DNA of 64,000 bases, from positions 32,001 through 96,000 of the forward strand of contig CAXXLZ010000003.1 of assembly GCA_963675595.2 (NCBI GenBank), read 5' to 3'. The translations under genes were made by a program, and so were the position numbers. Of the stretch, positions 45,380-63,424 are shown in pieces. Each line of letters begins with the position of its first letter. The stretch's first letter is position 1. The DNA comes from Thermodesulfobacteriota bacterium. Lineage in GTDB: Bacteria; Desulfobacterota; Desulfarculia; JACQYL01. A model generated the notes under the pieces. That model did no database searches and was not told where the DNA came from. It was given only the letters and a program-made list of their open reading frames with translations.

Positions 45380-47422
45380 TCAACCCACGGCGCGTTGCTT
45401 GTTCTTCAGGTAGTCCACGATCACCATTTGCGCCAGGTCTTCGGATGCGGCGAACAATGCCTTTCCTTTGTTCTCTTTACCCAAAGCGGACACGAATTGT
45501 TGCATCCCTTCGTCTTCGGAGAGCATAAACGTGGTGATGCGAATTCCTTCTTTGGTGCAGCGAGCCGCTTCCTTCAAGGTCTCCGAGAGGATCATGGGGG
45601 TGGCTTCGGATTCCAGGAATACGGTGCCGTCCATCTCGCACGCCGTGGGCTCGGCGTCCGTGATCAGGAAGATTCGTTTTTCCAGATGCGGCTGTCGACT
45701 CAGTATCCGACGGCAAAGCCGCAATCCTTCCTGGAGGTTGGTGAAGTCGCTCAGGAAATCCGGTCCTCCCTCGCGTTCCTGGGTTCGCAGGGCTTCCATG
45801 GAGATCGTTTTGGGAAAAGGAAGCGGGTTGTAAGGCATGGTTCGGGCGGTGAGCAACTCTTCCGGTTTGAGGATGCGGGCCAGGGAGTAGAATCCCACAA
45901 TGTGGAGGCGATCGCCTCGGAACTTCCTTCGGAGGAGTTCCTGAAGGTTCATGGCCACATTTTTGGCTTGAGGCAGGCGCTCATCCATGGAGCTGCTCAA
46001 GTCGATCAGGAGCACGGAGGCGGTCAAAGAATCGTATTCCGGTTCATAAACGCGGAAATCTTCCGTGCCGATCCTTACGGATCGACCCTTTCCATTTTTC
46101 CGACCGAGGGCGGACAGAATGGTGGCGGATGGGTCGAGATTCCAGGGATCGCCGTATGCATACTTTTTCGAGCTTCCGGAAAGGCTGTGCAGGGCGCGTG
46201 ACCTGTGCCGTGTTTTTTGCATCCCTCGGGGCAGGTTCATGCCGCATATCAGGTCCAGGAAACTCAACTCCCGAATTCTCCGTACGGCCTTGCCCGTGAG
46301 ATTCATGCGCTCCTGCTCGACCTGCAGGTAGCCCGCCTGAACCAGTACGTCCACGAGCCGCTGAAGGTTGTCCAGAGAAGCTTCGGCCAGTTCTCCCAGC
46401 AGCTCGCCCACCAAGTCTCGATTGACCTGATCGAGATCACCCAGGATATGGGCGCGTGTAAGGGAGTCTTCGAGCATCTCCAGTTTCCTCAATTTGAGCG
46501 CAACCTGAAAAGCGGCGTCAAGGGTGAGCGGTTGAGAGCCCGTGAATTCATAGGCTTTTACATGGGTCAAAGGGCTGATCCGGTCGAATCTCTCGAAGAG
46601 GCGTCGGAGGGATTGTCGGAGGGCTTCCGAGGATTCCGGGGGCTCCACCGATTCCAACGCCAGCCGTACTTGGAAGGGGAGGCTCGCCATGAGCGTCTTC
46701 ACTGCGGCCCGCTCCATTTGAACCGTATGGACGAAGGGGATGACCCCTTTGTCTATGGCAAGAACGCCCGGGAACTCGGCCAGGAAGGCCAAGAGGGCTT
46801 CAGTGCGGGCGTCTCCCCGAAGGTCCAGAACCTCGGCGAAGGAGTCGAGCGCAGGTATCGGGACCGGATCATGGTCGATATTGCTCTCGTGGAGAAGGAA
46901 TCGGATGCCTGAAAGTTTGCGCCACACCTCCTTTCCCCAGCGGAGGAGCGCGGCGCGGGCCTCGTTGTCGTCGTCCACGGCGGCGATCCGTCGCAGCTCG
47001 GACCCCGGATCATCGGGAAACCCGCTGAGAATTCCGTTCTTCATGGGGGGCTTTGCGCCATCGCCGTGTTCTTGAGAACCGGAGGGATTGTCGCCGCCCG
47101 AGTCCGTTGTCGGCCCGGAACTCGGATTTTGCGATGCATAGAAGAGTTCAAATCGCCTGCGGACCTGGTCGAGTACCCTGTCTATGCGATATGTGGCCAG
47201 CAAACCCTCGCGGAACCGACGGACCTGCTCGAGCATGCGGGAGAGACCGTCCACCCGTTGCTCCTCGTCGAGAAAACCATCCCACTTGATCTTCTCGAAG
47301 GCGGTTTCCAGCTTGTAGTTCTCCGTCAGCTTCCGTGAGAGCGCTTTAAGCAGACTGTCCGTGTCCGGCCCTGCCTTGTTCTTCTTGCCGTCTTCTGCTC
47401 GAAAGTAACGATAAACGGGCAT
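45380..47422 (-). CDS. VWA domain-containing protein
   Basis: MIDAS DLSSSM, TNLQEGL and ITDAEPT; YAYGDPWNLD motif; start MPVYRY. Confidence 0.82.
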   Translation of the reverse strand: MPVYRYFRAEDGKKNKAGPDTDSLLKALSRKLTENYKLETAFEKIKWDGFLDEEQRVDGLSRMLEQVRRFREGLLATYRIDRVLDQVRRRFELFYASQNPSSGPTTDSGGDNPSGSQEHGDGAKPPMKNGILSGFPDDPGSELRRIAAVDDDNEARAALLRWGKEVWRKLSGIRFLLHESNIDHDPVPIPALDSFAEVLDLRGDARTEALLAFLAEFPGVLAIDKGVIPFVHTVQMERAAVKTLMASLPFQVRLALESVEPPESSEALRQSLRRLFERFDRISPLTHVKAYEFTGSQPLTLDAAFQVALKLRKLEMLEDSLTRAHILGDLDQVNRDLVGELLGELAEASLDNLQRLVDVLVQAGYLQVEQERMNLTGKAVRRIRELSFLDLICGMNLPRGMQKTRHRSRALHSLSGSSKKYAYGDPWNLDPSATILSALGRKNGKGRSVRIGTEDFRVYEPEYDSLTASVLLIDLSSSMDERLPQAKNVAMNLQELLRRKFRGDRLHIVGFYSLARILKPEELLTARTMPYNPLPFPKTISMEALRTQEREGGPDFLSDFTNLQEGLRLCRRILSRQPHLEKRIFLITDAEPTACEMDGTVFLESEATPMILSETLKEAARCTKEGIRITTFMLSEDEGMQQFVSALGKENKGKALFAASEDLAQMVIVDYLKNKQRAVG

Positions 47423-47520
47423 GGTTTCGTACTCTGATTGGTCAATGTTGAGGGTGATTTTTCCCGGTGACCGAACACCGCCGGAGGGGCTTTTACCCGA
47501 TTCTCCGGCGTGGCACAGGG

Positions 47521-47868
47521 TCAAGGCACGGAAACCGTGATGGAGGCTACGGCGACCATCACGTGATCTCTGGTTCCGTTTCTTCTCAGGCTGCCCTCTT
47601 CCAGAAGGCCCCCCTGGACAACCTGAATCTCCTTTGAACCGAACGGGATGGTTTTGAGCACCTCTTCCTGATTCACCTCTTCCGGAAGCGGGATCCCGAT
47701 CTTCACTTTCACTTTCATGTCGGCAATATCCTGAAGAAGGCCGCATTCGAAAAGACCCAGCATGGAACAGCGCTGAATCGCGTCCTTCACGGCGCGAATC
47801 GCGCATCTTGTAGCTTCCGGTTTGTGCAGGTCGGTGCCCATGCCCAATTCGATCAGGTAATTACGCAT
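47521..47868 (-). CDS. Lin0512-family protein
   Basis: IELGMGTDLH....T.CA.RAVKDAI, PFG and GGL motifs. Confidence 0.85.
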   Translation of the reverse strand: MRNYLIELGMGTDLHKPEATRCAIRAVKDAIQRCSMLGLFECGLLQDIADMKVKVKIGIPLPEEVNQEEVLKTIPFGSKEIQVVQGGLLEEGSLRRNGTRDHVMVAVASITVSVP

Positions 47869-47956: not shown

Positions 47957-48856
47957 CTATAGGTGTTTCAGGAACCAGTCTCGTTGGGCCGGGCTCGAAA
48001 TCTCAAAGGCGCGCCCGACGTAGGCTTCGAAATGGCCCCCGGGAAGCAGGAGAATCTTTTTGGGTTCGAGTGCCTGTTCGAACGCCTCGCAGGTAATCTC
48101 CGCGGGGACGAGCGTGTCGCCCAAAGCCACCACCAGCATGAAAGGCGTGGGACAGATGTTTCGAATGTACCAGCCGGGTTCGTATTCCGCAAAGAGCTCC
48201 ACGGACTGCAGAGTGATCGAGTTGCGCCAGGAGGGCGCGAGAGTCTTGCAGGTTTCCAGAAAGAACTGCCTGGAATCGTCCGTGGGCAAGGCACAGGGGT
48301 CCCCCGGCTGTTCTCCGACCACGGGAATCATGGCCGGAGGATTTCCCGCGTATCGGGAGGCTCGATCCGCATCGAAGCCTGCTCGAACTGCGGGAAACAA
48401 ATCGGAGCGAATCAGTCTTTTGGCGTTCCTGAGTCCGCTGACCAAAGGCACCTGGGAAACCACGCACTTAACCCGCCGGTCGATGGCTCCGACCACGATC
48501 ACGTGGCCGCCGCTGTAACTGGAACCCCAAATGCCGATTCGATTTTCGTCGACTTCGTCCATGGAGGATGCAAAGGTAATCGCATCTCTGTAGTCGGAAA
48601 TCTGCTTCCATGGATCGATGTGACCTCTGGGCTCACCGTCGCTTTCTCCGAGATTCCGGTTGTCATAAACCAGTGCGTTCAGGCCCGCCTTGGCAAATAC
48701 CTCCGCAAACTTGTCCAGATACATTTCTTTAGTGGCGGAGAATCCGTGGGCCATGACAACGGTCGGTGCCGCGCCCGTCGCTCCTTCGCCTGGATAAAAC
48801 CAACCCCTTAACGTCACGCCGTCCTCGGTTTTAAAGTTGATGTCCCTTCGCATCAT
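47957..48856 (-). CDS. Alpha/beta-fold hydrolase
   Basis: VMAHGF, GESDGEPR, WGSSYSGG nucleophile elbow and GGHF motifs. Confidence 0.9.
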   Translation of the reverse strand: MMRRDINFKTEDGVTLRGWFYPGEGATGAAPTVVMAHGFSATKEMYLDKFAEVFAKAGLNALVYDNRNLGESDGEPRGHIDPWKQISDYRDAITFASSMDEVDENRIGIWGSSYSGGHVIVVGAIDRRVKCVVSQVPLVSGLRNAKRLIRSDLFPAVRAGFDADRASRYAGNPPAMIPVVGEQPGDPCALPTDDSRQFFLETCKTLAPSWRNSITLQSVELFAEYEPGWYIRNICPTPFMLVVALGDTLVPAEITCEAFEQALEPKKILLLPGGHFEAYVGRAFEISSPAQRDWFLKHL

Positions 48857-49109: not shown

Positions 49110-50318
49110 CTACGCGATCACGTCTTCTTCCGCCAAAGAGTTCAGCTCGACGTCGGACATTCCCAGAACGAGCCGGAGGATTTCCGCGGTACTTTCACCC
49201 AGGAGAGGAGAACATGCGACCGGAGGAGCCGCGTTGTCCACTCGGATGGGAGAGCCCAAAACGGTCAGGCGTCCCCAGTCCGGATGGTCGATTTCCTGGA
49301 GAAATCCTCCGGCGCGTACGTGTTCGTTTCGAGCGATTTCCGTCGAATCCAAAACGGCTCCGCAGGGGATATTCTCAGCCGCGAGGGTTTCCATAACCTC
49401 GAACTTGTCCCGGGCGGCGACCCAGGCTCCGATCTTGCGGTCGATTTCCTCGCGGTGGTCAATGCGTTCTTCAATGGAAGGGATTTTTCGGCCCTCGTCG
49501 TTGGAGTCGGCTTCGATGATTTCCATCAATCTGCTGAAGGCGTGGTTGGAAATGGCGCAGATGGCGACATAGCCGTTTCGAGCTTGGTACAAATCCCAGG
49601 GAGTGACGTCCCGGAGTTGGTTACCCAGGCGCGGAGCCGGGCTCCCGTAGGCAATATGGGTTCCCAACAGAGATCGTCCCAGGTTGATGGCGGCTTCTTG
49701 AAGGGTGACCTCTACTTTTCCTCCTCGACCCGTGCAGGTGCGCCGATAGAGGGCCGCCGCTATGCCCAGTGCCAGGTAAGCGCCGCCGGAGGCATCCGCT
49801 ACGGTAGCCCCACAGCGGAGAGGCAACCCGCCTTCTTCTCCCGTAAGGCTCATGATGCCTCCCATGGCCTGGGCGGTCATGTCCAGGGACGGAAAGTGCG
49901 CATACGGACCTGTGGTCCCGTATCCGCTGACGGAGGCCAAGATCAATTTCGGGTACTTCTCCAAGAGAGACGGATCGTCCAGGGACAATTGCGAGCGCCT
50001 CCGGGAACCCACATTCTCGACCAGCACATCCGTTTGATCCAGCAAACGATGAAAGACCGCCCGGCCTCGCTCGCCGTCCAGATCGAGAGCCACGCTCTTC
50101 TTGTTCAAGTTCATCAAAACGAAATAGAGATCTTCCTTATTGCCCTTGTTGTGGAAGAGTCGCCGTCTCGCTCCGCCGTGCTTGGGACTCTCCACTTTGA
50201 TCACCTCCGCTCCGAGCAAAGCCAGAAGCAGGGTGCAGGTGGGTCCCGCCTCATACTGCGATAGGTCGAGAATGCGAACTCCCGAGAGGAGACTCTGTTG
50301 GGGAATGGTTTGGGACAA
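49110..50318 (-). CDS. Family III CoA-transferase (CaiB/BaiF; formyl-CoA transferase-like)
   Basis: GVRILDLSQYEAGP, LGAEVIKVE, NLNKKSV, catalytic Asp in TVAD and PLLGE motifs. Confidence 0.92.
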   Translation of the reverse strand: MSQTIPQQSLLSGVRILDLSQYEAGPTCTLLLALLGAEVIKVESPKHGGARRRLFHNKGNKEDLYFVLMNLNKKSVALDLDGERGRAVFHRLLDQTDVLVENVGSRRRSQLSLDDPSLLEKYPKLILASVSGYGTTGPYAHFPSLDMTAQAMGGIMSLTGEEGGLPLRCGATVADASGGAYLALGIAAALYRRTCTGRGGKVEVTLQEAAINLGRSLLGTHIAYGSPAPRLGNQLRDVTPWDLYQARNGYVAICAISNHAFSRLMEIIEADSNDEGRKIPSIEERIDHREEIDRKIGAWVAARDKFEVMETLAAENIPCGAVLDSTEIARNEHVRAGGFLQEIDHPDWGRLTVLGSPIRVDNAAPPVACSPLLGESTAEILRLVLGMSDVELNSLAEEDVIA

Positions 50319-50346: not shown

Positions 50347-51195
50347 TCACGTCATCACGAGGCCGCCTGAGACACTGATGGTCTGCCCGGTGATGTAAGC
50401 CCCCAAGTCGGAGGCCAGGTAGGCGATCATAAGGGCCAGTTCTTCGGGCTCGCTGTAACGACGCAACGGAACCAATTTCAGAGTCTTATCGAGCTTGGTG
50501 ATGGCGTCCTTGCTGGAGCTTTTTAGGTCATCGATTTCCTGGACTCCGATGGAAACACAATTGCAGGTGATTTTGTATCGAGCCAATTCTTGGGCCAAGG
50601 AACGGGTGAACGAACTCACCGCGGCTTTGAGCGCTCCATACAGGGACATTCTGGGAACCCCGATCCGAGCGGTGTCGGATACCATGTGGATGATCCGACC
50701 GAATTCTCGTTCCTTCATGAAAGGAATCACCGACTGGGACCAGATCAACACGCTTTCGAGTACGTTTCGGTATTGAGCCTCCCATTCGGAACGTTCTTGC
50801 TCTTCGAAGGGCTTGAGATGATACATGAATTCGAGCAAGCCAAGGTCCGTGGCCAGGGCGTCGATTCGGCCCTCCCGTTCCATGACCCCCTGAAGAAAAT
50901 TCCGTATGGACGTGGCGTCCGAGTAATCTAGTACTTGCGTGTGGAGCCGGGGACCGAATAGTTCCTCACATTCCCTCGAGACGATATCGATCACCTTGGG
51001 GTTGGTATCCACTGCATAAACCACGGCCTCCTCGGCCATCAATATCTGGCAAAGCTCACTGGGGATGCATTTGCCGGACTTGTGGGATACAACCACCACC
51101 ACTCGGTCTTTGAGACCGTTGTTTCTCAGCGTCAGGAATTGTTCCTCGGCCTGTCGTCTGCTTTGCGGGGTGTCCAGGTTGCAACGAGATGTCAT
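50347..51195 (-). CDS. Atypical short-chain dehydrogenase/reductase (degenerate cofactor motif)
   Basis: YGALK, LAQEL and YITGQTISVSGG present; TGxxxGxG and NNAG absent. Confidence 0.8.
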   Translation of the reverse strand: MTSRCNLDTPQSRRQAEEQFLTLRNNGLKDRVVVVVSHKSGKCIPSELCQILMAEEAVVYAVDTNPKVIDIVSRECEELFGPRLHTQVLDYSDATSIRNFLQGVMEREGRIDALATDLGLLEFMYHLKPFEEQERSEWEAQYRNVLESVLIWSQSVIPFMKEREFGRIIHMVSDTARIGVPRMSLYGALKAAVSSFTRSLAQELARYKITCNCVSIGVQEIDDLKSSSKDAITKLDKTLKLVPLRRYSEPEELALMIAYLASDLGAYITGQTISVSGGLVMT

Positions 51196-51415: not shown

Positions 51416-51431
51416 AGCAACATCCATGCCA
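51416..51431 (-). promoter_or_regulatory. sigma54 -24/-12 promoter for the SDR/CoA-transferase arm
   Basis: TGGCATGGATGTTGCT (GG-N10-GC). Confidence 0.75.
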
Positions 51432-51513: not shown

Positions 51514-51529
51514 TGGTATGCTTCTTGAA
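51514..51529 (+). promoter_or_regulatory. Possible degenerate sigma54 promoter for the two-component genes
   Basis: TGGTATGCTTCTTGAA (-12 GC changed to GA). Confidence 0.35.
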
Positions 51530-51618
51530 CTACCATTCCGACAGGTTTCCTATGAGCCGAGAATGTGGCAAGGGTGATTCAGGCAGGTCCGCTTAGACGG
51601 GGCGCGAGGAGAGAGGAC

Positions 51619-53886
51619 ATGTATATCATCGATTTTAATCCCTTCCAGTATGAGGGGCTGTCTCAGACGGACGAGGGCGACGCCCCCGTTTCGGACGGAT
51701 TCGCGTTTCCCTACGGGCGATCGAACGGCGCGAGAAAAGCCTCGGATCCTGTGGAAACCATGAACAATGAGCTTCTTTCCGAGCTTGTAGAGAGAACGAA
51801 ACTCATTGCCAGCCTGAACAATATCAGTCCCCTTCCGTTGGAAGGAATGACGCTGGACAAGGTGCTCAGCACCATTTTGAACAATATGCTTCACTGTTTC
51901 GGCTACTACCGGGGCATCGTTTATCTTTGGGACAAGAAGAAGGAAAACCTCGCATGCCATGCCACAGCGGGCATGAGCCCGGACAGCGAACGTATTGTAC
52001 GTTCGAGGCCTCTAAGCGCCCGCAGACATGACTGCATTGAAATTCGCGCCGCCCGGACCTCCACGTATACGTTCACAGAGGACCCGACCAACGGCACGGA
52101 ACTGACCGACGTGGACCGAAAGATTTCGGAGCAGCACGGCGGCCGGGGCTCGGTCCTTTACGTTCCCTTGCGCTCCAAAGGCGAAACGTTCGGTATCATG
52201 GGCGTCGAACGGTTTCCGACGCCGAACAGGGAGTGCCCCGAACAGTTCCAGATTACGGAAAAAGATATCAAGTCCCTGATGCTGTTCACCAACCATGCCA
52301 GCATAGCTATCGAGAATGCCAGGCTTCACGAACAGAACCAAAGGAAGATCGACTACTTGTACAAATTGCAGTCGGTGTATCAAGAACTGAACACTCTTAT
52401 GGACCTCCGGCGACTCACTGAACGGGTTCTGGAGGGGGGACTGTGCATCAGCGGTGCTGAAACAGGGATTTTTTGGGACGTGCATGAAGACGGGTGTGAA
52501 GTGCTGGTGGATGCGGCTTGTGGCTACCCGCAATGGGTGAGGAGAGGCATGGGCGTCTCCTGCAAGAATGATGATTTTCAGTACATAATCCGGCAGAAGG
52601 AAGCCGTGGCCTTTCGGCAACCCGCCCCGTTCCTCAGAGAAATTCCGTGCCTTCGGCCCGGCGCAACCTCGATCCTGTTGCCCATCGAGTTCGATGACAG
52701 GGTTGCGGCCATTCTGCAGTTGGACCTTCCGGACGGTAGCGGGATGGACGACACCGCTACGGAGGTCTTGAAGATCTACTCTTCTCAGGCCGGTAAGCTC
52801 CTCGAAAACGTGAAGCTATACAATCAGTTGCTTGTGGAGAAACGTTTTACGGACAACGTCAGGAACAGTCTGGGGATTGGGCTTCTTATCACGGACAAAT
52901 ATGGTAATATTCGCTCTATTAATCCAAAAACACGCGATGTTTTTAATATTAACGGGGCTGATCTCGTCAGAAAGAATATGGTTTCCGTATTCAAGGGAAA
53001 ACGACGTTTCGTATCCGACATCGTCCAAGACGTCATGTCCACTAAAACGGACATGGAGCGAGAGGTGGTCTACGAGACCGGTGTGGGAACCCTGATCCTG
53101 AAACTTTCCGCGTTTGTCGTGCACGATGAAGCGCGAAGTTTGGTCGGTGTGACGACTTTTATCCAGGATATTACCGAAAAGAAGAAACTGGCGGATTCGC
53201 TGAACCGGATGGAGAAGATGGCCGCCATGGGAACGATGGCCGCGGGGGTGGCTCATGAACTCAGGAATCCTCTCAGCGGTATTTATGCGGCGGTGCAGAC
53301 GCTTTCGAAGGAACTGATACTGACCGACGATCAACGTGAAGAAATCAACGACGTCCTGTCCGAAGTGGACCGGATGGAGATACTGATTCGCGAAATACTC
53401 CAAATATCAAGACCGGTTAACCTGAGGATATCACGAACGGATATCAACGGCCTGCTGCGTAGTTCAATCGTGGGGCTCCGAGAGAGCTTCCAGGAGAAGA
53501 AGATCAAAGTGGTGGAGCATCTGGATCCCCTCTTGCCTTTGGTCCAAGCCGACGGCGATTTGTTGAGGCACGTCTTCCAGAATCTCCTTCTGAACGCGGT
53601 CGACGCCGATCCGGAAGAAGGCGTGGTCGAAGTCGATACGCGATGTGTTTCTTCCTATATTCATACCGGAGAGAGACTCGTGGAAATCCAGATCTCGGAT
53701 AACGGTTCCGGCGTGGCTGAGGAAAACCTCTCAAAGATCTTCGATCCGTTCTTTACCACGAAAAATCACGGCACCGGCCTGGGATTGACCATATGTCAAA
53801 AGATCATCCAGGAACACGATGGTGAGATCTATGTGACACAACTCCCGGGACAGGGCAGCAGTTTTACGGTACGTCTGAAATTATGA
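51619..53886 (+). CDS. Cytoplasmic GAF-GAF-PAS sensor histidine kinase
   Basis: AHELRNPL H-box; NLLLNA, DNGSG, FDPFFTTK and GTGLGL; GAF signatures AIENARLHE and LLENVKLY; no TM helix. Confidence 0.93.
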   Translation: MYIIDFNPFQYEGLSQTDEGDAPVSDGFAFPYGRSNGARKASDPVETMNNELLSELVERTKLIASLNNISPLPLEGMTLDKVLSTILNNMLHCFGYYRGIVYLWDKKKENLACHATAGMSPDSERIVRSRPLSARRHDCIEIRAARTSTYTFTEDPTNGTELTDVDRKISEQHGGRGSVLYVPLRSKGETFGIMGVERFPTPNRECPEQFQITEKDIKSLMLFTNHASIAIENARLHEQNQRKIDYLYKLQSVYQELNTLMDLRRLTERVLEGGLCISGAETGIFWDVHEDGCEVLVDAACGYPQWVRRGMGVSCKNDDFQYIIRQKEAVAFRQPAPFLREIPCLRPGATSILLPIEFDDRVAAILQLDLPDGSGMDDTATEVLKIYSSQAGKLLENVKLYNQLLVEKRFTDNVRNSLGIGLLITDKYGNIRSINPKTRDVFNINGADLVRKNMVSVFKGKRRFVSDIVQDVMSTKTDMEREVVYETGVGTLILKLSAFVVHDEARSLVGVTTFIQDITEKKKLADSLNRMEKMAAMGTMAAGVAHELRNPLSGIYAAVQTLSKELILTDDQREEINDVLSEVDRMEILIREILQISRPVNLRISRTDINGLLRSSIVGLRESFQEKKIKVVEHLDPLLPLVQADGDLLRHVFQNLLLNAVDADPEEGVVEVDTRCVSSYIHTGERLVEIQISDNGSGVAEENLSKIFDPFFTTKNHGTGLGLTICQKIIQEHDGEIYVTQLPGQGSSFTVRLKL

Positions 53887-55486: not shown

Positions 55487-55502
55487 TGGTACGGTTCTTG
55501 TT
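55487..55502 (+). promoter_or_regulatory. sigma54 promoter (variant -12) for the reductase/dehydratase operon
   Basis: TGGTACGGTTCTTGTT immediately downstream of the IHF site. Confidence 0.55.
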
Positions 55503-55629
55503 TGCAGAGTTTGGTCACGGAGCTTTCGTCCCGAGGCCGTGAGTGAGTGGTTATGAGCAGGCCACGAATCGTTCGGCGAATCCGGAAAAGGCTCGCGTTC
55601 CAACGATATTCTCCCCGAGGAGTGAAATC

Positions 55630-57029: not shown

Positions 57030-58196
57030 ATGGCGAGTTTTTTCCAGGAGTGGGTGGAGTATCGACACGAAAAAGTCAGGCAATGGAAAGAGGACACGGG
57101 CGGGAAGGCTTACGGATACCTGTGTTGCATGACGCCCGAGGAAATCTTGTATGCGGCCGGCGTTCTGCCCGCGAAGGTGATGGGAGCGGGTGAGGCGCCC
57201 CAGGAGATCGTCGACAAGCATCTTGTGCGTTACGCATGTCCCTATGTGAGAAGCATGCTCGACGCGGCGGGACGTGGGGAATATTCGTACCTGGATTCCG
57301 TGGTGGTCTGTAACAGCTGCGACATCATGTCTCGAGTCGAGTACTACTGGCGGACCATGAAACCGCATCCCAAATCCACCATATTGGGGGTGGAGCTGTC
57401 GCCGTACGTTTTGTACATCAAGAGTCCCGAAAAGATCTCCGGACCCGGCGTCCACGAATATCTTCGTTCCGAGTTCCGTATTTTCAAGCAACATTTGGAG
57501 AGGGACACCAAACAGGTAATCACGGACGATATGCTCGAATCGGCAATCTCGGTCTACAACGAGCATTACGACCTGATGAGAAAGCTTCACGACTTGAGGA
57601 AAGAGGAACCCCTCAAGGTGTCGGGCAGCGAGGCTTTCGTGATCGAGCTTTCGTCTCTGTTGATGCGTAAAGACCTTCATAACCAAAAGCTGGCCGCCCA
57701 CTTGAAGAACATCGAGACTCGGGAGCCTCTTTCGGGAAACCCCGTCCGGCTGTTTCTTTCGGGTGGAGGTGTGGACCACTTTACCGGACAAATTTACACG
57801 GTCATCGAGGAGGCGGGCGGACAGGTGGTGGCTGAAGACATCGGTGTGGGATCGAGCTGGTTCGGCCACGGGATCGACACCGACAAGCCTCCCATGGATG
57901 CCATCGTGGCTCACCGACTCGATGTTCATTGTCCCCACACCATGACTTCCGAACGTCACCCCAGGGAACGGTTCGAATACGTGAAATCCAAGATTAAGGA
58001 CGCGAATGTCAAAGGGGCGGTGTTCTTCGTCCCCATGTACTGCGAATGCCGGAATCTGGAGTACCCGTTTATCAAAGAAGGCCTCCGGGACGAGTTGGGG
58101 ATTCCCACGCTCTATCTGGACAGCGACTACAGTCAGGGATCGCTGGACGAAGCCGTTTCGAAGATCGAGGCCTTCATCGAGATGCTTGAGGAATAA
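57030..58196 (+). CDS. Benzoyl-CoA reductase / dehydratase-family subunit (BzdN/BcrC/HgdB-like)
   Basis: RHE..RQWK.TGG, PEEILYAAG, CPY, NSCD, YCEC and KIEAFIEML motifs. Confidence 0.88.
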   Translation: MASFFQEWVEYRHEKVRQWKEDTGGKAYGYLCCMTPEEILYAAGVLPAKVMGAGEAPQEIVDKHLVRYACPYVRSMLDAAGRGEYSYLDSVVVCNSCDIMSRVEYYWRTMKPHPKSTILGVELSPYVLYIKSPEKISGPGVHEYLRSEFRIFKQHLERDTKQVITDDMLESAISVYNEHYDLMRKLHDLRKEEPLKVSGSEAFVIELSSLLMRKDLHNQKLAAHLKNIETREPLSGNPVRLFLSGGGVDHFTGQIYTVIEEAGGQVVAEDIGVGSSWFGHGIDTDKPPMDAIVAHRLDVHCPHTMTSERHPRERFEYVKSKIKDANVKGAVFFVPMYCECRNLEYPFIKEGLRDELGIPTLYLDSDYSQGSLDEAVSKIEAFIEMLEE

Positions 58197-58201: not shown

Positions 58202-58963
58202 ATGCTCATTGTTGGAATCGACGTGGGCCAACACGGCATCAAAGCCGTGGGAGTGAAGGATTCGGCGATTGCCTCTCAAGAAGTTCTCCAGTCGGGGAGT
58301 GAAGCGAACGTGGGCGCGGGGGAGATTCTCGAGAGGATACTGGCGCAGTCCCCACATTCCGACAACGAGGCGGTAAAGGTTGTCGCCACCGGTCTCGGTC
58401 GCAAAGAAGTATCCTTCGCCGACCTGCGCCGAACACAGGAACATTGTGTGGCCAAGGGAGCTCATTTCCTTATGGGCGGGGCCTGCACGATCCTGGACGC
58501 GGGAGCCGGCGGGTGCAGGGCGGTGCGCATCGGCCCAACGGGCAAAGTACTTGAATTTTCAGGCAACAGCAAATGCGCCTGCGGCACCGGCTCCTTCTTC
58601 ACCACGGCTTGCGAAGTCCTGCAGATCGGCATGGACAGGCTGGATGAATTGGCCTTGCAGGCCGAAGGACTTGCCGGCGTCAGCACCACCTGTGCCGTGT
58701 TCGCGGAATCGGCCATCATCTCCAATGTTCATCGAGGATTCGGCTTAGGAGATATCTGTGCGGGAATCTGCGACTCCGTGACCACGCGACTCACGGACGT
58801 CGTTCATCGAGTCGGCGTTGAAGAGGAACTGTTCTTCTGCGGCGGCGTGGCTCTCATGCGAACGGTTGGGAAGATGCTGGAGGCGCAACTCGGAGTCAAG
58901 GTGCACGTGCCCGAGGCGCCTCTACTGGTCGCCGCGCTGGGGGCGGCACTATCCCTCGCCTAA
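58202..58963 (+). CDS. ASKHA-type ATP-dependent activase subunit (BzdP/BcrD-like)
   Basis: GIDVG, KCACGTG, CAVFAES, CGGVA and ALGAAL motifs. Confidence 0.88.
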   Translation: MLIVGIDVGQHGIKAVGVKDSAIASQEVLQSGSEANVGAGEILERILAQSPHSDNEAVKVVATGLGRKEVSFADLRRTQEHCVAKGAHFLMGGACTILDAGAGGCRAVRIGPTGKVLEFSGNSKCACGTGSFFTTACEVLQIGMDRLDELALQAEGLAGVSTTCAVFAESAIISNVHRGFGLGDICAGICDSVTTRLTDVVHRVGVEEELFFCGGVALMRTVGKMLEAQLGVKVHVPEAPLLVAALGAALSLA

Positions 58964-58988: not shown

Positions 58989-59789
58989 ATGTTCTACGCG
59001 GGCGTTGATGTCGGGTCTCGCACGGCCAAGGCGATCATTCTGCATGACGGCCGGCAAATGGGTTCTCACTTGATTTCCACTGGGGCGGACAGCGCGGAGA
59101 CCTCCAAGACCGTCCTCGAAGGGGCACTGCGCGATGCCGGGCTGGAAATGGGACTGCTGAAGGGCATCGTCACCACCGGGTACGGCCGCTACATCGCGCC
59201 TTTCCCCCATGAGAGCATCACGGAAATCGCCTGCCACACCAGAGGGGTGCATCAGGTATTCCCTTCCGCCCGAACGATTTTGGATATGGGTGGGCAGGAC
59301 TGCAAGGCAATTCGGTTGAACGAGTCGGGGGATCATATCAATTTTGTGATGAACGACAAATGTGCCGCGGGAACAGGCAGGTTTCTTGAAGTCCTGGCGC
59401 GAAGTCTGGATGTGCGTCTGGAGGAAATGACGACCCTCGCCTTGGGAGCGGATAACCCCATTCGCATCAGCTCGGTCTGCGCGGTGTTTGCCAAGGAGGA
59501 AGCGCTCTCCCATCGGCGAAGAGGAGTTCCTCTCAATGCGATCCTTGCCGGAGTCCTGGATTCCGTCGCCGAACGCGTGTTCAAACTGATCAACGTCGTT
59601 GGGCTGGAGGAGGATTTTGTGATTACCGGAGGAATCGCCTTGAATGCCGGAGTGGTCCGGCGAATTGAGCAACGAGCCAAGATGCGGGCGCTCATTCCTC
59701 CGGAACCCCAATTGACCGGCGCCATGGGGGCGGCTTGGCTGGCGAAGCATTTGGACGAATCGAAACTAGGAAAGGGTGGGTATGCCTGA
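58989..59789 (+). CDS. ASKHA-type ATP-dependent activase subunit (BzdQ/BcrA/HgdC-like)
   Basis: GVDVGS, TGYGR, EIACH, DMGGQDCK, NDKCAAGTGRF and CAVFAK motifs. Confidence 0.92.
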   Translation: MFYAGVDVGSRTAKAIILHDGRQMGSHLISTGADSAETSKTVLEGALRDAGLEMGLLKGIVTTGYGRYIAPFPHESITEIACHTRGVHQVFPSARTILDMGGQDCKAIRLNESGDHINFVMNDKCAAGTGRFLEVLARSLDVRLEEMTTLALGADNPIRISSVCAVFAKEEALSHRRRGVPLNAILAGVLDSVAERVFKLINVVGLEEDFVITGGIALNAGVVRRIEQRAKMRALIPPEPQLTGAMGAAWLAKHLDESKLGKGGYA

Positions 59790-60564
59790 TTTTGTTACAT
59801 GGGAAATGGAGAATGCCGTAGCTCAAGTAGTGCTGAACAGTCCTCCCGCCAACGCCATGAGTGCCGGGCTTCTGCAGGAGCTCGACGGCGTCGTAAAGGA
59901 GTTGAAGACCGACTCCCGGGTGCGGGCGGTGGTTTTCAGGAGCGCCGTTCCGAAAATCTTCATGGCCGGCGCGGACTTGAAAGCCTTGACGGATATGGAT
60001 GGAACACGCTTCCGTGAGTATATCCGCTATGCCCAGGAAGTGTTCAGCGGGATCGAAAGACTGGGTATGCCGACCATCGGGGTGCTGAGCGGGCATGCCT
60101 TGGGCGGAGGGTGTGAATTTTCCCTCTGCTTCGATTTCCGTTTCATGGCGGAGGAGAAGGCGAGAATCGGCCTTCCCGAAGTCACGTTGGGGCTTATTCC
60201 GGGGGCGGGGGGCACTCAGCGTCTTCCTCGCCTCATCGGCCTGGCCAAGGCAAGGGAGTTTCTGATCCGGGGAAATGCCGTCGATGGAGCCGAAGCGCTG
60301 TCCATCGGCTTGGTGGATCGTGTTTTTCCCGCAAGCAGTCTTCTGGACGAGGCCCTGCAGTTCGCCCAAGCCATGGCCGTGGGAGCGACCAAGGCCATGG
60401 CGGAAATCAAACGTTGTCTGGCGGTTCCGACCGAAGAAGCCCTGTGGACCGGGCTGAACCAGGAACTTGACGGCATCGTACGCTTGTTCACTGAAACCGA
60501 GGACACAAAGGAAGGGATTCGGGCGTTCAACGAGAAACGTTCACCGGTGTTTCACGGGAAATAG
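59782..60564 (+). CDS. Enoyl-CoA hydratase/isomerase (crotonase family)
   Basis: AGADL, GHALGGGCE and GLPEVTLGLIPGAGGTQRL (both catalytic Glu present). Confidence 0.93.
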   Translation: MPDFVTWEMENAVAQVVLNSPPANAMSAGLLQELDGVVKELKTDSRVRAVVFRSAVPKIFMAGADLKALTDMDGTRFREYIRYAQEVFSGIERLGMPTIGVLSGHALGGGCEFSLCFDFRFMAEEKARIGLPEVTLGLIPGAGGTQRLPRLIGLAKAREFLIRGNAVDGAEALSIGLVDRVFPASSLLDEALQFAQAMAVGATKAMAEIKRCLAVPTEEALWTGLNQELDGIVRLFTETEDTKEGIRAFNEKRSPVFHGK

Positions 60565-60581
60565 CTTTAGGAGAGAAAGCC

Positions 60582-61346
60582 ATGGAAATTCGGAATGCTG
60601 TAGCTTTGGTGACCGGGGGAGCATCCGGTCTTGGAGAGAGATGTGCTCGCGATCTCGTTGCTGAAGGAGCTCGTGTGGCGATTCTGGATGTGGGCGAAAG
60701 AGGGGCCGAGGTTGCCGCCGAGCTGGGTGATGCCTGCATTTTCTGCAAGACCGACGTGACGAGCGCCGATTCCGTTAAAGCCGCGGTAGACGAGGCCGTT
60801 GCGAAATTCGGTGCGATTAACATCGCCGTGAACTGCGCCGGCGTGGCCACTGCGGCCAAAGTGATCGGCAAAACGGGTCCCATTGATCTGGCGGGATTCG
60901 AAAAGGTGATCAGCATCAACCTGACGGGAACCTTGAACGTTCTGCGTCTGGCCGTGGAACAGATGCTGAAGAACGCCCCCAACGAGGAAGGGGAGCAGGG
61001 TGTGGTGATCAATACGTCTTCTTGTGCGGCTTTTGAAGGTCAGATCGGCCAAGCGGCCTACAGCGCATCCAAGGCCGGCGTGGCCGGTATGACGTTGCCC
61101 ATTGCTCGGGAACTAGCTCGTTACGGAATCCGTAATGTGACCATCGCCCCCGGCCTGTTTGAAACCCCCATGCTCGCGGGGATGCCGGATAAGGTTCGCC
61201 AGTCCCTCATCGCCACGTGCCTTTTTCCAAAGAGACTTGGAAAACCCAGTGAATTCTCCCTGCTGGTGAAGCAGATCATTCAGAATCCAATGTTGAACGG
61301 CGCCACCATCCGATTGGACGGTGCGCTGCGTATGGCTCCCCAGTGA
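60582..61346 (+). CDS. SDR-type 3-hydroxyacyl-CoA dehydrogenase (HSD17B10/FadB2x-like)
   Basis: TGGASGLG, NCAG, GQIGQAAYSASK and IRLDGALRM motifs. Confidence 0.92.
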   Translation: MEIRNAVALVTGGASGLGERCARDLVAEGARVAILDVGERGAEVAAELGDACIFCKTDVTSADSVKAAVDEAVAKFGAINIAVNCAGVATAAKVIGKTGPIDLAGFEKVISINLTGTLNVLRLAVEQMLKNAPNEEGEQGVVINTSSCAAFEGQIGQAAYSASKAGVAGMTLPIARELARYGIRNVTIAPGLFETPMLAGMPDKVRQSLIATCLFPKRLGKPSEFSLLVKQIIQNPMLNGATIRLDGALRMAPQ

Positions 61347-61441
61347 GTGTAGGAGGATAGGGCCTCCGCCCATAAGGAGAGGCTCAACCTCAGTGCGATT
61401 TCCGTAATCCAACCACAAGCAAGCAAAAGAGGAGGAGCACA

Positions 61442-63424
61442 ATGGAGCCGGTTAAACCTTCAGGTCCCGAGCACGATTGCATGATCGTCGACCAGCTCAA
61501 ACCAGGAGCCGAATTCACGTGCGAGGAACTACCGGAGGAGTATCTCCAACAGGTGCACGTCATTTCGCTCATGGCGGAAATGGCGAAGCAGGAGGGAACG
61601 GAATACATTTTCGGAATCACTGCCGGAGCCGAATTCCCCATGGAAGGCCTCTTTATGAAGGCCGGTATCAAGCGGGTCCATGTTCGCCACGAGCAGAGCG
61701 CGACCTTCGCCGCGGATGCCATGGGGCGCTTGACGAGAAGGACTGCGCCGACGGTGATCGGGCCTTCCACGGGTCTGACCAACTGTACGTCCGGTCTGGC
61801 TCAGGCCATGGCCTCCCAGTCTCCCGTCCTCGTCATCGGCGGTGAACACCCGGCTTGGACGGACAATGTCTATTTCGCACAGGGTTTGGTTCAGTGCGAA
61901 AAGGTGTTTCAGGGAATCACCAAGAAAACCACGCGATGCACCAGCCCAAGGAACATCCTGGCCGAGTTCAAACGACTGTATCGCCTTGCCATGACTCCGC
62001 CCATGGGCCCCACGGCGATGGCCATTCCCTGGGACACGAGCTATGAGTACAGCCGCATACCTCTGATCGAGGCGCATTACCTGTACGGTCCCGGAAACCT
62101 CCCCAAGACCGAACCCAAGATGACCCGCGAAGATCCGAAGCTCATCGAGGAAGCGGTGAAATGGCTCCTCGAAGGAGACAAGCCGGGCATCATCGCCGGT
62201 GAGGGTGTTTGGTACGACGACGCACAGGAAGAGCTGCGCGAGTTGACCAAACTCACGGGAATTCCCTGCCACTCCCGACGTATGGCCCGTGGCGCCATCG
62301 ACGAGTACGATCCGTTGAACTGCGGTGGTCGAGCTCGCGGCCGCTTCCTGCGTGGATGTGACCGAGCCATGGTCTTGGGTTTGCGCATAGGTTACCTCGA
62401 AATGCACGGTTATCCGCCCTTCTGGGGAGAGGAAACCAGATACATCCAGGCCCAGACCTGCCGTGACAACGTCGACCTGATGCTGGCCACCGATTTCGAA
62501 CTCATCGGTAACATCAAAGCATTGCTCCAGCAGATGATCGAATGCATCAAGTCCATGGGGATCAACAAGCCCATCGAGCGATTGGACGAATGGCGGAAGT
62601 ATATCGTCGACAGCAAGGAATACTACGAAAAGAAGGTCGCGGAACGCTTGGTGAAGATGCGCGGCGTGACTCCGGTGCATCCGGACCTCATCGGCCGGCT
62701 CATTTATGAGGTGGTCAACGAGGAATTGAACGACGAGGTCATCTCGATCATCGACGGTTTTACCGCGTCTTCATTCTACACCGATCACAACCGCTGCCGC
62801 ACCGCTGGGCGGGTGCTCGACGCCAGCGACACCATCGGTATCGGACACGGCCCCGGCATGGCTCTGGGCGCCGGTCTCGCCACGAACCGCTCCATCCCGT
62901 TGATCTGCGTCATTGGAGACGGCGGATTGGGCGCCGCCGGAATGGATATCGAAACGTGTTCCCGTTGGGACATTCCGGTGGTCTTCATTCACGAAAACAA
63001 CAACACCATGGTGGCGGGCGGTTGGAAGCTGTTCTGGTCCAAAGCGTGTTCGCCGACGGGCAACGAAATGCTGGATTCCTGGCAAACGCTGCCCAACATC
63101 CGCTACGATAAGATGATGGCGGAATTTGGGCTGCACACCGAGTTCGTGGAAAAAGACGGTGAATTCAAAGCCGCGTTGAAGCGTTCTCTCGACTTTGTAC
63201 GGGATAAATCCAAACCGGCGTTTATCGAGGTTTTCGTCGAAGGCCGGACAATGAACGAAATCTGGGCCACCTTCCTGACCAGTTGTTGCGGTTTCCTGGA
63301 ATGGGAAGACCTGCCGGAAGAAGGGCGTAAAGCGATTCTGGACCTTGGGCTCTGCGATCCCACCTACAGAGCCTTCGCCCCGACCTGGCCCGACGAGGCA
63401 TTCCAGAAGAAGAAGAAAAGATAG
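61442..63424 (+). CDS. Thiamine-diphosphate-dependent enzyme (2-hydroxyacyl-CoA lyase/oxalyl-CoA decarboxylase/ALS superfamily)
   Basis: RHEQSA catalytic Glu; GDGGLG...GMDIET..RW.IP....NNN TPP motif. Confidence 0.88.
   Translation: MEPVKPSGPEHDCMIVDQLKPGAEFTCEELPEEYLQQVHVISLMAEMAKQEGTEYIFGITAGAEFPMEGLFMKAGIKRVHVRHEQSATFAADAMGRLTRRTAPTVIGPSTGLTNCTSGLAQAMASQSPVLVIGGEHPAWTDNVYFAQGLVQCEKVFQGITKKTTRCTSPRNILAEFKRLYRLAMTPPMGPTAMAIPWDTSYEYSRIPLIEAHYLYGPGNLPKTEPKMTREDPKLIEEAVKWLLEGDKPGIIAGEGVWYDDAQEELRELTKLTGIPCHSRRMARGAIDEYDPLNCGGRARGRFLRGCDRAMVLGLRIGYLEMHGYPPFWGEETRYIQAQTCRDNVDLMLATDFELIGNIKALLQQMIECIKSMGINKPIERLDEWRKYIVDSKEYYEKKVAERLVKMRGVTPVHPDLIGRLIYEVVNEELNDEVISIIDGFTASSFYTDHNRCRTAGRVLDASDTIGIGHGPGMALGAGLATNRSIPLICVIGDGGLGAAGMDIETCSRWDIPVVFIHENNNTMVAGGWKLFWSKACSPTGNEMLDSWQTLPNIRYDKMMAEFGLHTEFVEKDGEFKAALKRSLDFVRDKSKPAFIEVFVEGRTMNEIWATFLTSCCGFLEWEDLPEEGRKAILDLGLCDPTYRAFAPTWPDEAFQKKKKR

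Follow-up and report, generated by a model that had tools for sequence, protein, structure and literature searches.

A long thiamine-dependent enzyme encoded with a benzoyl-CoA reductase-like module: a possible variant of the ketone clusters of sulfate-reducing bacteria

Within a 64,000-nt stretch of a Thermodesulfobacteriota genome (assembly GCA_963675595.2, contig CAXXLZ010000003.1, positions 32,001 to 96,000; hereafter the window), we describe a regulated set of about 16 genes, studied at 45380-63424 and just beyond the right edge, in which a long thiamine pyrophosphate (TPP) enzyme is encoded together with two HGD-D iron-sulfur subunits, two ATPases, a crotonase and a type-II 3-hydroxyacyl-CoA dehydrogenase. 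Judged from sequence, we tentatively read this cluster as a variant of the thiamine-dependent ketone clusters of sulfate reducers, in which a carbonyl compound and a one-carbon (C1) unit might be converted to a 2-hydroxyacyl-CoA, then to an enoyl-CoA and finally to a 3-oxoacyl-CoA. We favour this reading as possible rather than probable. Loci compared with the cluster are labelled L### (contig stretches), G401 and G402 (other genomes of the same family) and G000 (the source genome), with C# for their contigs.

In the proposed route, whose substrate, C1 donor, direction and dehydratase activity we infer, the long TPP enzyme would join a carbonyl compound to an activated C1-CoA (formyl-CoA or an equivalent), giving a 2-hydroxyacyl-CoA that, from a methyl ketone, would be a tertiary 2-hydroxy-2-methylacyl-CoA. 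The two HGD-D subunits and two ATPases would then remove the 2-hydroxyl group by ketyl-radical chemistry, the ATPases delivering a low-potential electron, to yield a 2-enoyl-CoA. The crotonase would hydrate the latter to a 3-hydroxyacyl-CoA, the type-II dehydrogenase would oxidise this to a 3-oxoacyl-CoA, and a thiolase, encoded elsewhere in this genome and adjacent to the cluster in L017, would perform the final cleavage. Butanone would thereby pass via tiglyl-CoA and 2-methylacetoacetyl-CoA to acetyl-CoA and propionyl-CoA. The radical module and the hydratase would do the job of the B12 mutase in the acetone route. Such a scheme would suit ketones larger than acetone (higher methyl ketones), the products of which have a beta-CH2 group; acetone taken through the enoyl route would end as a primary alcohol, which would explain why the genome has retained a mutase route. 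The left arm of the cluster plausibly feeds the route, its short-chain dehydrogenase/reductase (SDR) turning an alcohol into a ketone, its hydrolase opening an ester or lactone, and its CoA-transferase shuttling CoA.

Results

A long TPP enzyme related to the HACL/Oxc family

The TPP enzyme (660 aa; 61442-63424, plus strand) carries the three TPP Pfam domains (N, M and C). A search of the PDB gave 56 matches at E<=1e-10, the 16 top ones being without exception 2-hydroxyacyl-CoA lyases or synthases (HACL, HACS) or oxalyl-CoA decarboxylases (Oxc), with 8vzd the best at 1.9e-41; the best acetolactate synthase (ALS) match stood at 9.2e-24, and anabolic ALS at 1e-16 or weaker. Phylogenetic placement was evaluated in a quick IQ-TREE analysis (LG+G4, SH-aLRT only, PoxB as root) of 48 rows, in which the window family stood with paralogs from the same genome, relatives from metagenomes, and Oxc, IlvB, IlvI, Gcl and PoxB of E. 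coli (HACL, cyclohexanedione hydrolase and Xsc reference sequences were not among the rows). The enzyme fell into a 43-row clade with Oxc (SH-aLRT 100), apart from IlvB, IlvI, Gcl, PoxB and the genome's own ALS. A nested clade of 31 long enzymes (about 650-685 aa; SH-aLRT 100) includes the window family as well as TPP683, a mutase-linked paralog of the same genome. The preliminary description of this DNA had called the TPP enzyme HACL/Oxc-like and had held that a grouping with anabolic ALS would undo this assignment; both the solved relatives and the tree bear the assignment out, the enzyme lying outside IlvB, IlvI, Gcl and PoxB with SH-aLRT 100.

The segment of GMDIET..RW.IP type to which that description had pointed (GMDIETCSRWDIP) is indeed present; its counterpart in HACS and Oxc is, by alignment, the GME(V/I)ET..RY.L motif. 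The cofactor glutamate E84, G492-D493-G494 and N519-N520 are invariant in 15/15 aligned family members; TPP domains, cofactor Glu and GDG..NN motif are common to all enzymes of this fold. R299 aligns with the first acyl-CoA-binding Arg of HACL/S (these residues are R260 and R400 in ApbHACL/S; PMC11271303); it is likewise invariant in all 15 family members, and its column holds Arg in E. coli Oxc and no Arg in the five ALS/Gcl/PoxB rows. At the ADP site, the Arg of the SGRPG motif is replaced by P187 (TPPMG), and the second ADP Arg aligns with R315. The C-terminal stretch after the NN motif comprises 138-164 residues that are not alignable, compared with 80-100 in the shorter Oxc-side and ALS rows and 113-121 in Gcl and PoxB. 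The enzyme extends 40-60 aa further at this end and does not show the short C-terminal covering peptide (R-K-x-Q...W) of the family. Absence of the ADP-site Arg and a longer C-terminal region are also described for an actinobacterial ketone-specific lyase (PMC11271303). By these comparisons the enzyme is a relative of the HACL/Oxc family and a member by no curated criterion.

Long TPP enzymes of about 1090 aa with a fused DUF362 domain occur in metagenomes (P0091, P0093, P0097), and free-standing DUF362 genes adjoin HGD-D pairs in L093 (17485-18807) and L030 (6696-9095). A DUF362 gene also lies upstream of the TPP gene in L039 (1826-4222), where no HGD pair was found. Such fusions and neighbours suggest an electron-transfer partner.

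The cluster recurs as shuffling modules

Among the matches listed, the first 88 proteins were at least 42% identical to the window TPP enzyme, and its source-named relatives were all from metagenome-assembled genomes (Deltaproteobacteria, Desulfobacterales, Zixibacteria, Chloroflexi). A profile search of genome contigs with the TPP alignment returned at least 11 relatives, at least one of them of window type. At E<=1e-60 the gene was detected in 2/2 other genomes of the same family and in 0/38 genomes of other families among the relatives, and at E<=1e-120 in 0/400 other sampled genomes of the phylum. Since the arrangement recurs in both same-family genomes (TPP enzyme 86% identical) and also in metagenome contigs, it is more than chance.

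The fullest counterpart, G402 C16, has genes for kinase, regulator, two HGD-D subunits, two ATPases, type-II dehydrogenase, TPP enzyme and the TPR, AAA+ and VWA proteins described below, together with a divergent SDR and CoA-transferase, and has no crotonase. G401 C5 holds kinase, regulator, crotonase, dehydrogenase, TPP, TPR, AAA+ and VWA genes without the HGD/ATPase module and without CoA-transferase. The HGD-D and ATPase genes occur in the same genome on another contig, C132, where two of each are preceded by a TetR gene and followed by genes for a metallo-beta-lactamase (MBL)-fold protein, a TPP enzyme, a 418-aa protein, two mutase pairs, an SCPx-type thiolase, DUF35 and MeaB; these HGD-D proteins are 87% and 77% identical to the L017 subunits and the TPP enzyme is 49% identical to that of the window. 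(In this stretch, G401:C132:60000-79999 or L111, the 418-aa protein has no Pfam match, and a 177-aa thiolase fragment lies just upstream of HGD-D.) A third locus of this genome, C139, combines a TPP gene (41%) with type-II dehydrogenase, mutase and MeaB.

Window-type TPP orthologs stand directly beside acyl-CoA mutases in L034, L037, G401 C132 and G401 C139, which implies a product of the 2-hydroxyacyl-CoA type; for the linked mutases only generic acyl-CoA mutase domain models pass, which do not separate HCM/RCM from other subtypes. A thiolase adjoins the cluster in L017 and L018. Partner genes were counted at 27 window-type TPP loci (L006, L017-L041 and L043; many of them no longer than 2-6 kb, with L017/L018 and L020/L021 as near-duplicate pairs): crotonase occurs at nine of the 27, HGD-D at seven, type-II dehydrogenase at five, the TPR/AAA+/VWA trio at four (with TPR alone in L019), acyl-CoA mutase at two, and family III CoA-transferase at two (L022, L036). 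TPP enzyme and type-II dehydrogenase are usually together, and the mutase and reductase-like modules are swapped or combined around them. Of all the evidence, this interchange most strongly indicates that they all share one class of intermediate as substrate or product. The cluster is therefore conserved as shuffling modules and not as a fixed unit; a search for conserved synteny, as proposed in the preliminary description, upheld the TPP/type-II dehydrogenase association and not a cluster inherited whole.

The iron-sulfur module

The HGD-D alpha subunit (55543-57006, plus strand; PF06050, 201.3 bits) is BzdO/HadB-like, the PDB search ending in a tie between BzdO (4.6e-29) and HadB (2e-28). 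With the published ligand list of BzdNO as reference (PMC11971306), its C134, C170 and C431 align with or next to the BzdO ligands Cys95, Cys128 and Cys380. Opposite W84 in the alignment stands Trp46, the BzdO residue that is packed against the benzoyl ring (PMC11971306); BzdO Glu65 and His131 correspond to Met102 and Arg173, both in weakly aligned segments.

The beta subunit (57030-58196, plus strand; PF06050, 242.6 bits) is BzdN-like. In BzdN, an [8Fe-9S] double-cubane cluster is held by Cys36, 73, 100, 263, 293 and 327 (PMC11971306). C32, C70, C97 and C338 of the window protein align exactly with four of these six ligands and C301 is a probable fifth, and Gly272 stands at the position of BzdN Cys263, for which C340 is the candidate replacement. 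Covariation was evaluated in 29 full-length homologs, out of 32 matches at E<=1e-60 from which three partial sequences were removed (P0241-P0271). All 23 homologs with Gly or Ser at 272 carry Cys at 340, five of the 29 have Cys at 272 and Gly or Ala at 340, and one has neither, so that 28/29 carry Cys at one of the two positions and not at the other. Positions 272 and 340 thus look like the old and new sites of a relocated iron-sulfur ligand, and the compensatory swap would mean that six-cysteine coordination is under selection.

ATPase type 1 (58202-58963, plus strand; BcrAD_BadFG 121 bits; TIGR00241 173.9 bits, exceeding the cut-off of 125.4) and type 2 (58989-59789, plus strand; BcrAD_BadFG 186.7 bits; TIGR00241 236 bits) are about 31% identical to each other, and both keep C125 and C164, the cluster-bridging cysteines. 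Type 1 orthologs (58-61% identical) are found in L017-L019, G402 and G401 C132, and type 2 orthologs (68-71%) always adjoin type 1, the two being side by side in L017, L019, G402 and G401 C132. Equivalog cut-offs are missed throughout: 211.8 bits for type 2 against the BzdQ model (cut-off 380.2), and 174 and 117.6 bits with the BzdN and BzdO models (453.8 and 448.6). In architecture and probable cofactors the module is, by these comparisons, benzoyl-CoA reductase (BCR)-like, and its genomic company is aliphatic. Its putative dehydratase activity is suggested by context, the TPP enzyme standing upstream in the logic of the pathway and the crotonase downstream; a tertiary alcohol, as the window module would have for substrate, is to our knowledge without precedent in the 2-hydroxyacyl-CoA dehydratase family.

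In the source genome, HGD-D genes number 16, in eight pairs, and activase-type ATPase genes at least eight. In a 27-row HGD-D tree the closest paralogs of the window pair are those of L093/L096, and the next relatives include pairs beside TPP genes in L006, L007, L030 and L037 as well as a pair that follows a thiolase gene and a FadB-type gene. Three times in the source genome (window, L093/L096 and L102/L095), pairs of this HGD-D clade lie amid beta-oxidation genes. A second set of two HGD-D and two ATPase genes is located at C1:1631534-1635574.

A canonical acetone cluster and further paralogs in the same genome

Three further long TPP genes, at about 30% identity, are present in the source genome. 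That of TPP683 (27-30% identical to the window enzyme) lies in L094 (G000:C1:919000-939000) in the order TPP, radical-SAM activase-like gene, mutase large and small subunits, MeaB and PRK08217-type SDR, with an OAD-beta gene and two MBL-fold genes nearby. This gene set matches the acetone-induced proteins of Desulfosarcina cetonica (PMC7888143), and the activase adjoins the thiamine diphosphate (TDP) enzyme gene in Desulfotomaculum arcticum as it does here (PMC8084838). The relatives of TPP683 are 683-688 aa long and come from Desulfobacterales and Peptococcaceae; none is named as the enzyme of Desulfococcus biacutus, which has 685 aa (PMC7176365). Length, neighbours and taxon range lead us to infer that TPP683 is the equivalent of the D. 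biacutus enzyme, and L094 looks like a canonical sulfate-reducer acetone cluster. Neither mutase nor MeaB genes were detected in the window and its flanking DNA, and the four mutase genes that the genome has are located elsewhere.

The third long-TPP cluster, L093/L096 (G000:C1:1551000-1586000), encodes TetR, a 650-aa TPP enzyme, a thiolase, the HGD-D pair, DUF362, a second thiolase, an acyl-CoA dehydrogenase, an APH-type kinase, ETF beta and alpha and a 56% identical paralog of the window dehydrogenase, and ends with genes for a thioesterase, an MBL-fold protein and an aldehyde:ferredoxin oxidoreductase. The fourth long TPP gene (L092) lies between an acyl-CoA dehydrogenase and an SCPx-type thiolase.

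Enzymes downstream of the module and in the left arm

The dehydrogenase next to the TPP gene (SDR254; 60582-61346, plus strand) has type-II 3-hydroxyacyl-CoA dehydrogenases or close SDR relatives as its best 16 PDB rows (8e-83 to 6e-54), the best match covering residues 1-253. It is accordingly predicted to be a type-II (HSD10-like) enzyme, which agrees with, and narrows, its earlier description as a 3-hydroxyacyl-CoA dehydrogenase. Enzymes of this type handle 2-methyl-3-hydroxyacyl-CoA, i.e. 2-methyl-branched substrates. SDR254 adjoins the TPP gene in 5/5 close metagenome loci and in G401 C5, G401 C139 and G402 C16, and not in G401 C132. The crotonase-family enoyl-CoA hydratase (59776-60564, plus strand; ECH_1 191.5 bits) reaches at most 221.5 bits with the NCBIfam enoyl-CoA hydratase models, under their cut-offs, and is present in L019-L021 and G401 C5.

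The left arm begins with an SDR of 282 aa (50347-51195, minus strand; adh_short_C2, 133.9 bits), which gave sub-threshold NCBIfam matches only and no PDB match at E<=1e-28; orthologs (70-71%) are found in L020, L021, G401 and G402. It is followed by a family III CoA-transferase (49110-50318, minus strand; PF02515, 340.6 bits), whose best PDB matches are Frc (7.9e-54), SUGCT (1.5e-47) and YfdE (1.2e-45). It is identical to E. coli Frc at 31% of positions and to YfdE at 30%, and it retains the column of the catalytic Asp. Aligned with E. coli Frc, the protein is without the insertion of about 17 residues and without the GGGGQ-type glycine loop; the glycine-rich loop of Frc has a functional role. 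With the two Frc models it scored 290 and 281 bits (cut-offs 442 and 504). An identification as formyl-CoA transferase was rejected on these grounds, insertion and loop being absent and the curated cut-offs missed, and the label Frc-like given earlier overstated the resemblance. The protein is best described, from its sequence, as a generic family III enzyme. A 58% ortholog is encoded in G402 and none in L020, L021 or G401 C5; family III CoA-transferases recur beside long TPP genes in L007, L022, L036, L046 and L050.

The alpha/beta-fold hydrolase (47957-48856, minus strand) matches several alpha/beta-hydrolase Pfam families and gives 131 bits with the UilS lactonase model, far under the cut-off of 400; 7d78 (2e-40) and GrgF (6lzh, 1.5e-37) are its best PDB matches, and an 86% ortholog occurs in L020, L021 and G401. 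It would be of esterase, lactonase or thioesterase type. Genes for MBL-fold proteins recur beside long TPP genes, at L019:3998-4972, L023, L032:7964-8926, L094:1619-3321, L096:10022-10921, L095:6805-7722, L005:7305-8453 and L111:8503-9495; they may encode thioester hydrolases.

The last gene of the left arm, which the preliminary description had not mentioned, encodes a VWA-domain protein of 808 aa (45380-47806, minus strand; PF13519 VWA_2 at residues 598-718, 34.5 bits), which has no NCBIfam match and Rv0959-like VWA proteins as its nearest Atlas clusters (score 0.96). In the source genome it lies at the far left of the cluster, away from the genes for a TPR protein and an AAA+ ATPase at the far right. 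In L017, L018, L020, L021, G401 and G402, its homologs (39-43%) stand downstream of the TPP gene, and TPR, AAA+ and VWA genes follow the TPP gene as a trio. The trio occurs once in the source genome. The VWA protein is likely a partner of the BchI-like AAA+ ATPase, and the two may form a chaperone or cofactor-insertion pair and the trio a maturation or chaperone system. The TPR protein has a weak match to a B12-binding domain; TPR and AAA+ genes span G000:C3:95902-100391.

Regulation and boundaries of the cluster

Two divergent arms, the left on the minus and the right on the plus strand, flank a two-component system, as the preliminary description had it; all genes that it described are present by open reading frame (ORF) calling, Pfam and NCBIfam, and the 13 genes are real ORFs with strong family matches. 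The cytoplasmic sensor histidine kinase (51565-53886, plus strand; Pfam) has GAF, PAS, HisKA and HATPase domains. It had been called a GAF-GAF-PAS kinase, of which one GAF and the PAS domain pass and the second GAF-like stretch is weak (23.9 bits, Pfam cut-off 28.6). The NtrC/AtoC-type sigma-54-dependent response regulator (53883-55247, plus strand) combines Response_reg, Sigma54_activat (230.5 bits), AAA_lid_14 and HTH_8. Scores with the AtoS and AtoC models were 294 bits for the kinase (cut-off 646) and 480.8 bits for the activator (cut-off 714).

The sigma-54 consensus TGGCAYG-N4-TTGCW (TGGCAYGNNNNTTGCW) has a single exact match in the 64 kb, at 51416-51431 on the minus strand, about 220 bp upstream of the start codon of the left-arm SDR, where it marks a candidate -24/-12 promoter of the left arm. 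Weaker sigma-54-like motifs with two mismatches precede the kinase gene (51514-51529, plus strand) and the right arm (55487-55502, plus strand; 41 bp before the first HGD-D start codon). Motifs with up to two mismatches were observed ten times in the window and expected 14.2 times by chance, so that by count these two weaker sites are not significant. A near-identical copy of the kinase-upstream motif lies in front of the kinase gene in L020 and L021, and in L020 the first gene of the right arm has a GGCACG-N4-TTGA motif upstream. The cluster is thus predicted to be controlled by sigma-54 and the two-component system.

To the right, the unit runs beyond the window with a TPR-containing protein of 1032 aa, whose start lies at 63902-64000 (plus strand), followed by a BchI-like AAA+ ATPase of 465 aa (ORFs and Pfam for both). 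Genes left of 45380 encode unrelated functions (polyamine synthesis, alkaline phosphatase and others) and were rejected as members. Elsewhere in the window, two adjoining pentapeptide-repeat proteins (498 and 396 aa) are encoded at 24808-27528, in a low-GC stretch (0.497 at 24001-26000).

Discussion

Several observations weigh against the proposed route from carbonyl compound to 3-oxoacyl-CoA. For the TPP enzyme, the NCBIfam top model is 'acetolactate synthase' PRK05858 (223.7 bits), the ALS model TIGR00118 gives 149.6 bits against 149.7 for the actinobacterial HACL model (cut-off 600), the Oxc models give 154.7 and 163.9 bits (cut-offs 739.4 and 557), and every curated NCBIfam cut-off is missed. 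At the place of the second CoA-binding Arg, where the alignment is poor, the enzyme has Y446, and the alignment shows no conservation of the GIP loop found in HACL/S. For the module, the best solved matches of the beta subunit are BzdN at 6.1e-49 and HadC at 2.2e-33, and the HadB and HadC models reach 145.9 and 147 bits (cut-offs 750 and 700). The six maintained beta cysteines suggest that the subunit holds a two-electron double-cubane cluster, which a redox-neutral dehydratase should not need; the six-cysteine pattern sets BzdN and double-cubane proteins apart from dehydratase beta subunits (PMC11971306). The two distinct ATPases are conserved as a pair, and a dehydratase activator is one homodimer. 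In sequence the module looks more like a Bzd-type reductase than like a HgdAB/HadBC dehydratase; of the BCR/2-hydroxyacyl-CoA-dehydratase-type complex with two activases seen in the preliminary description, the architecture stands and the HgdAB affinity is weakened, the beta subunit being closer to BzdN.

The gene neighbourhoods and the published physiology add to this. The crotonase is missing from the operon in L017, L018 and G402; 11 of the 27 window-type TPP loci have no partner gene, including L024 and L032 with at least 6.5 kb on both sides; and the CoA-transferase, without Frc hallmarks and dispensable in relatives, says little for formyl-CoA as the donor. In all four strains studied, BCR/2-hydroxyglutaryl-CoA dehydratase-like subunits were acetone-induced together with the mutase (PMC8084838), and together with the operon of G401 C132, which has both, this means that mutase and module are perhaps not alternatives. 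The mutase-linked paralog cluster and the TPP orthologs beside mutases agree with the earlier proposal of an alternative to the TPP/B12-mutase route; the co-induction does not. Finally, for the acetone-type reaction, formyl-CoA and oxalyl-CoA gave no product in extracts and the thiamine-dependent step has reportedly never been reconstituted in vitro (PMC7888143).

Much of this evidence would also fit a module that is no dehydratase and serves the long TPP enzyme in the activation step as an ATP-driven low-potential electron donor or co-catalyst, for instance by helping to build a thiamine-bound C1-CoA unit from CO2 or CO and CoA, after which mutase or hydratase would act on the product. The BCR-type architecture and the covariation that keeps six cysteines in a double-cubane-type beta subunit point that way, as do the operon of G401 C132, in which HGD/ATPase, TPP and two mutases are combined, and the DUF362-fused long TPP enzymes (P0091, P0093, P0097) with DUF362 genes near HGD pairs (L093, L030). 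Reductase-like subunits are induced along with the mutase in all four acetone degraders, where the authors suspect them of taking part in activation (PMC8084838); none of the C1 donors tried gave the TDP reaction (PMC7888143). Against this stand the absence of a precedent for such chemistry, the BzdO/HadB-like three-cysteine site and CoA-ester fold of the alpha subunit, which suggest a CoA-ester substrate of its own, and the operon of G401 C5, in which TPP enzyme, SDR and crotonase are retained and the module is not. Moreover, beta-oxidation genes accompany HGD pairs of this clade where no TPP gene adjoins (also in D. biacutus cluster B; PMC4103992). We consider an activation partner unlikely. 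In its most specific form, which appears very unlikely, module and TPP enzyme would together convert ketone, CO2 or CO, CoA and two low-potential electrons to 2-hydroxyacyl-CoA without free formyl-CoA. Such reductive C1 addition would explain the failed reconstitution of acetone activation with every donor tried, the constant co-induction of reductase-like subunits with the mutase, and the DUF362 fusions. If true, this would bring the defined catabolic roles of heterodimeric double-cubane enzymes to just two and add a new type of system that forms C-C bonds.

The cluster might also run in the opposite direction, degrading 2-hydroxy acids or performing an anaerobic alpha-oxidation, which we regard as distinctly unlikely. 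Here the CoA-transferase would activate a 2-hydroxy acid, or the radical enzyme would hydrate an enoyl-CoA at C2, the TPP enzyme would act as a lyase to free formyl-CoA and an aldehyde or ketone one carbon shorter, and crotonase and dehydrogenase would serve an interleaved branched-chain beta-oxidation. HACL and the actinobacterial 2-hydroxyisobutyryl-CoA lyase are physiologically lyases (PMC7176365, PMC11271303), whereas the sulfate-reducer acetone clusters run in the synthase direction (PMC7888143). The acyl-CoA dehydrogenase, ETF and aldehyde:ferredoxin oxidoreductase of L093/L096 would suit an aldehyde product; neither an aldehyde-oxidising enzyme nor an acyl-CoA dehydrogenase was found in the window cluster or next to it. 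Family III CoA-transferases partner clostridial 2-hydroxyacyl-CoA dehydratases, and they stand beside long TPP genes at five loci (L022, L036, L007, L046, L050); in the loci orthologous to the window, however, the CoA-transferase is not conserved. Type-II 3-hydroxyacyl-CoA dehydrogenases and SCPx-type thiolases form a set for branched-chain beta-oxidation.

A barely credible alternative, raised in the preliminary description and little supported since, makes the module an ATP-dependent dearomatising aryl-CoA reductase in an aryl-CoA or alicyclic pathway, with the TPP enzyme cleaving the ring or a C-C bond and crotonase and SDR processing a dienoyl-CoA: BzdN as the best solved match of the beta subunit, the resemblance of the gene set to BzdNOPQ, the double-cubane-type cysteine pattern and W84 at the position of BzdO Trp46 (PMC11971306) speak for it, but the Bzd and Bcr equivalog models all remain far under their cut-offs, BzdO Glu65 and His131 align with Met and Arg (in a weak part of the alignment), there is a single crotonase and by Pfam no ring-opening hydrolase or aryl-CoA ligase, cyclohexane-1,2-dione hydrolase is not named among the 56 PDB matches of the TPP enzyme at E<=1e-10, and in relatives the module keeps company with acyl-CoA mutases, thiolases and FadB-type genes.

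Returning to the favoured route by way of 2-hydroxyacyl-CoA and enoyl-CoA, the kind of system is known: sulfate reducers have thiamine-dependent ketone clusters with co-induced reductase-like proteins. Mutase and reductase-like subunits are both induced in acetone degraders, and the reports assign no role to the reductase-like proteins on ketones (PMC7888143, PMC8084838), so that the pairing of thiamine enzyme and reductase-like proteins is already in print, unexplained. In the open-access literature that was searched we found nothing after 2021 on the ketone activation step of sulfate reducers, no description of a cluster like this one or of a tertiary 2-hydroxyacyl-CoA dehydratase, and no paper joining a 2-hydroxyacyl-CoA lyase with a 2-hydroxyacyl-CoA dehydratase; double-cubane together with acetone appeared only in unrelated chemistry. 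New here are the lack of a mutase, the joining of a crotonase and all four genes of the reductase-like module in a single unit under sigma-54 control, a TPP subfamily of its own that is so far restricted to one bacterial family and uncultured lineages, and the attached TPR/AAA+/VWA trio.

Around a constant core of long TPP enzyme and type-II dehydrogenase stand B12 mutases in some cases and all four genes of a BCR-like module in others, which turns a vague proteomic association into a testable genetic one with specific genes named. As a dehydratase, the module would be the first of its kind for tertiary 2-hydroxyacyl-CoAs and would open a B12-free route from ketones, or from C1 units and carbonyls, to beta-oxidation intermediates, of relevance to the synthetic assimilation of one-carbon units by HACL-type enzymes. 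As a reductase or an activation partner, it would widen double-cubane enzyme chemistry beyond aromatic ring reduction. The cluster offers a fresh way to approach an unsolved step in the anaerobic breakdown of ketones.

Compared with known systems, the module shares with the Bzd-type class I benzoyl-CoA reductase (BzdNOPQ) the two HGD-D subunits, the two different ATPases, the three-cysteine alpha pattern and, probably, the six-cysteine beta pattern; it differs in one ligand that seems to have moved (272 to 340), in its aliphatic context and in having no downstream benzoyl-CoA pathway genes. HadBC/HadI and HgdAB/HgdC belong to the same superfamily, HadB tying with BzdO for the alpha subunit, and the window offers a setting like theirs, with a source of 2-hydroxyacyl-CoA, an enoyl-CoA hydratase and, as in clostridia, a family III CoA-transferase close by. 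Unlike them, it has two ATPases in place of one homodimeric activator, and its beta subunit keeps cysteines that the dehydratases have lost (PMC11971306). HACL/S, Oxc and the actinobacterial 2-hydroxyisobutyryl-CoA lyase resemble the window TPP enzyme in cofactor Glu, GDG..NN motif and first CoA-binding Arg, and the actinobacterial ketone-specific lyase also in its lack of the ADP-site Arg and its longer C-terminal region; compared with HACL/S and Oxc, the window enzyme is about 100 residues longer, forms a separate clade and, in the alignment, does not conserve the GIP loop and the second CoA-binding Arg. The CoA-transferase has the fold and catalytic Asp column of Frc and YfdE; its N-terminal half is closest to Frc, and in the loop region it resembles YfdE, unlike Frc.

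[quoted passage not shown] Like them, the window cluster has a long TPP enzyme of, as judged by TPP683, the same clade, an SDR of PRK08217 type and two subunits of BCR/2-hydroxyglutaryl-CoA-dehydratase type. Unlike them, it has neither mutase nor MeaB, carries the four-gene module and a crotonase in its operon, and is set apart by its predicted sigma-54 and two-component control and by the TPR/AAA+/VWA trio.

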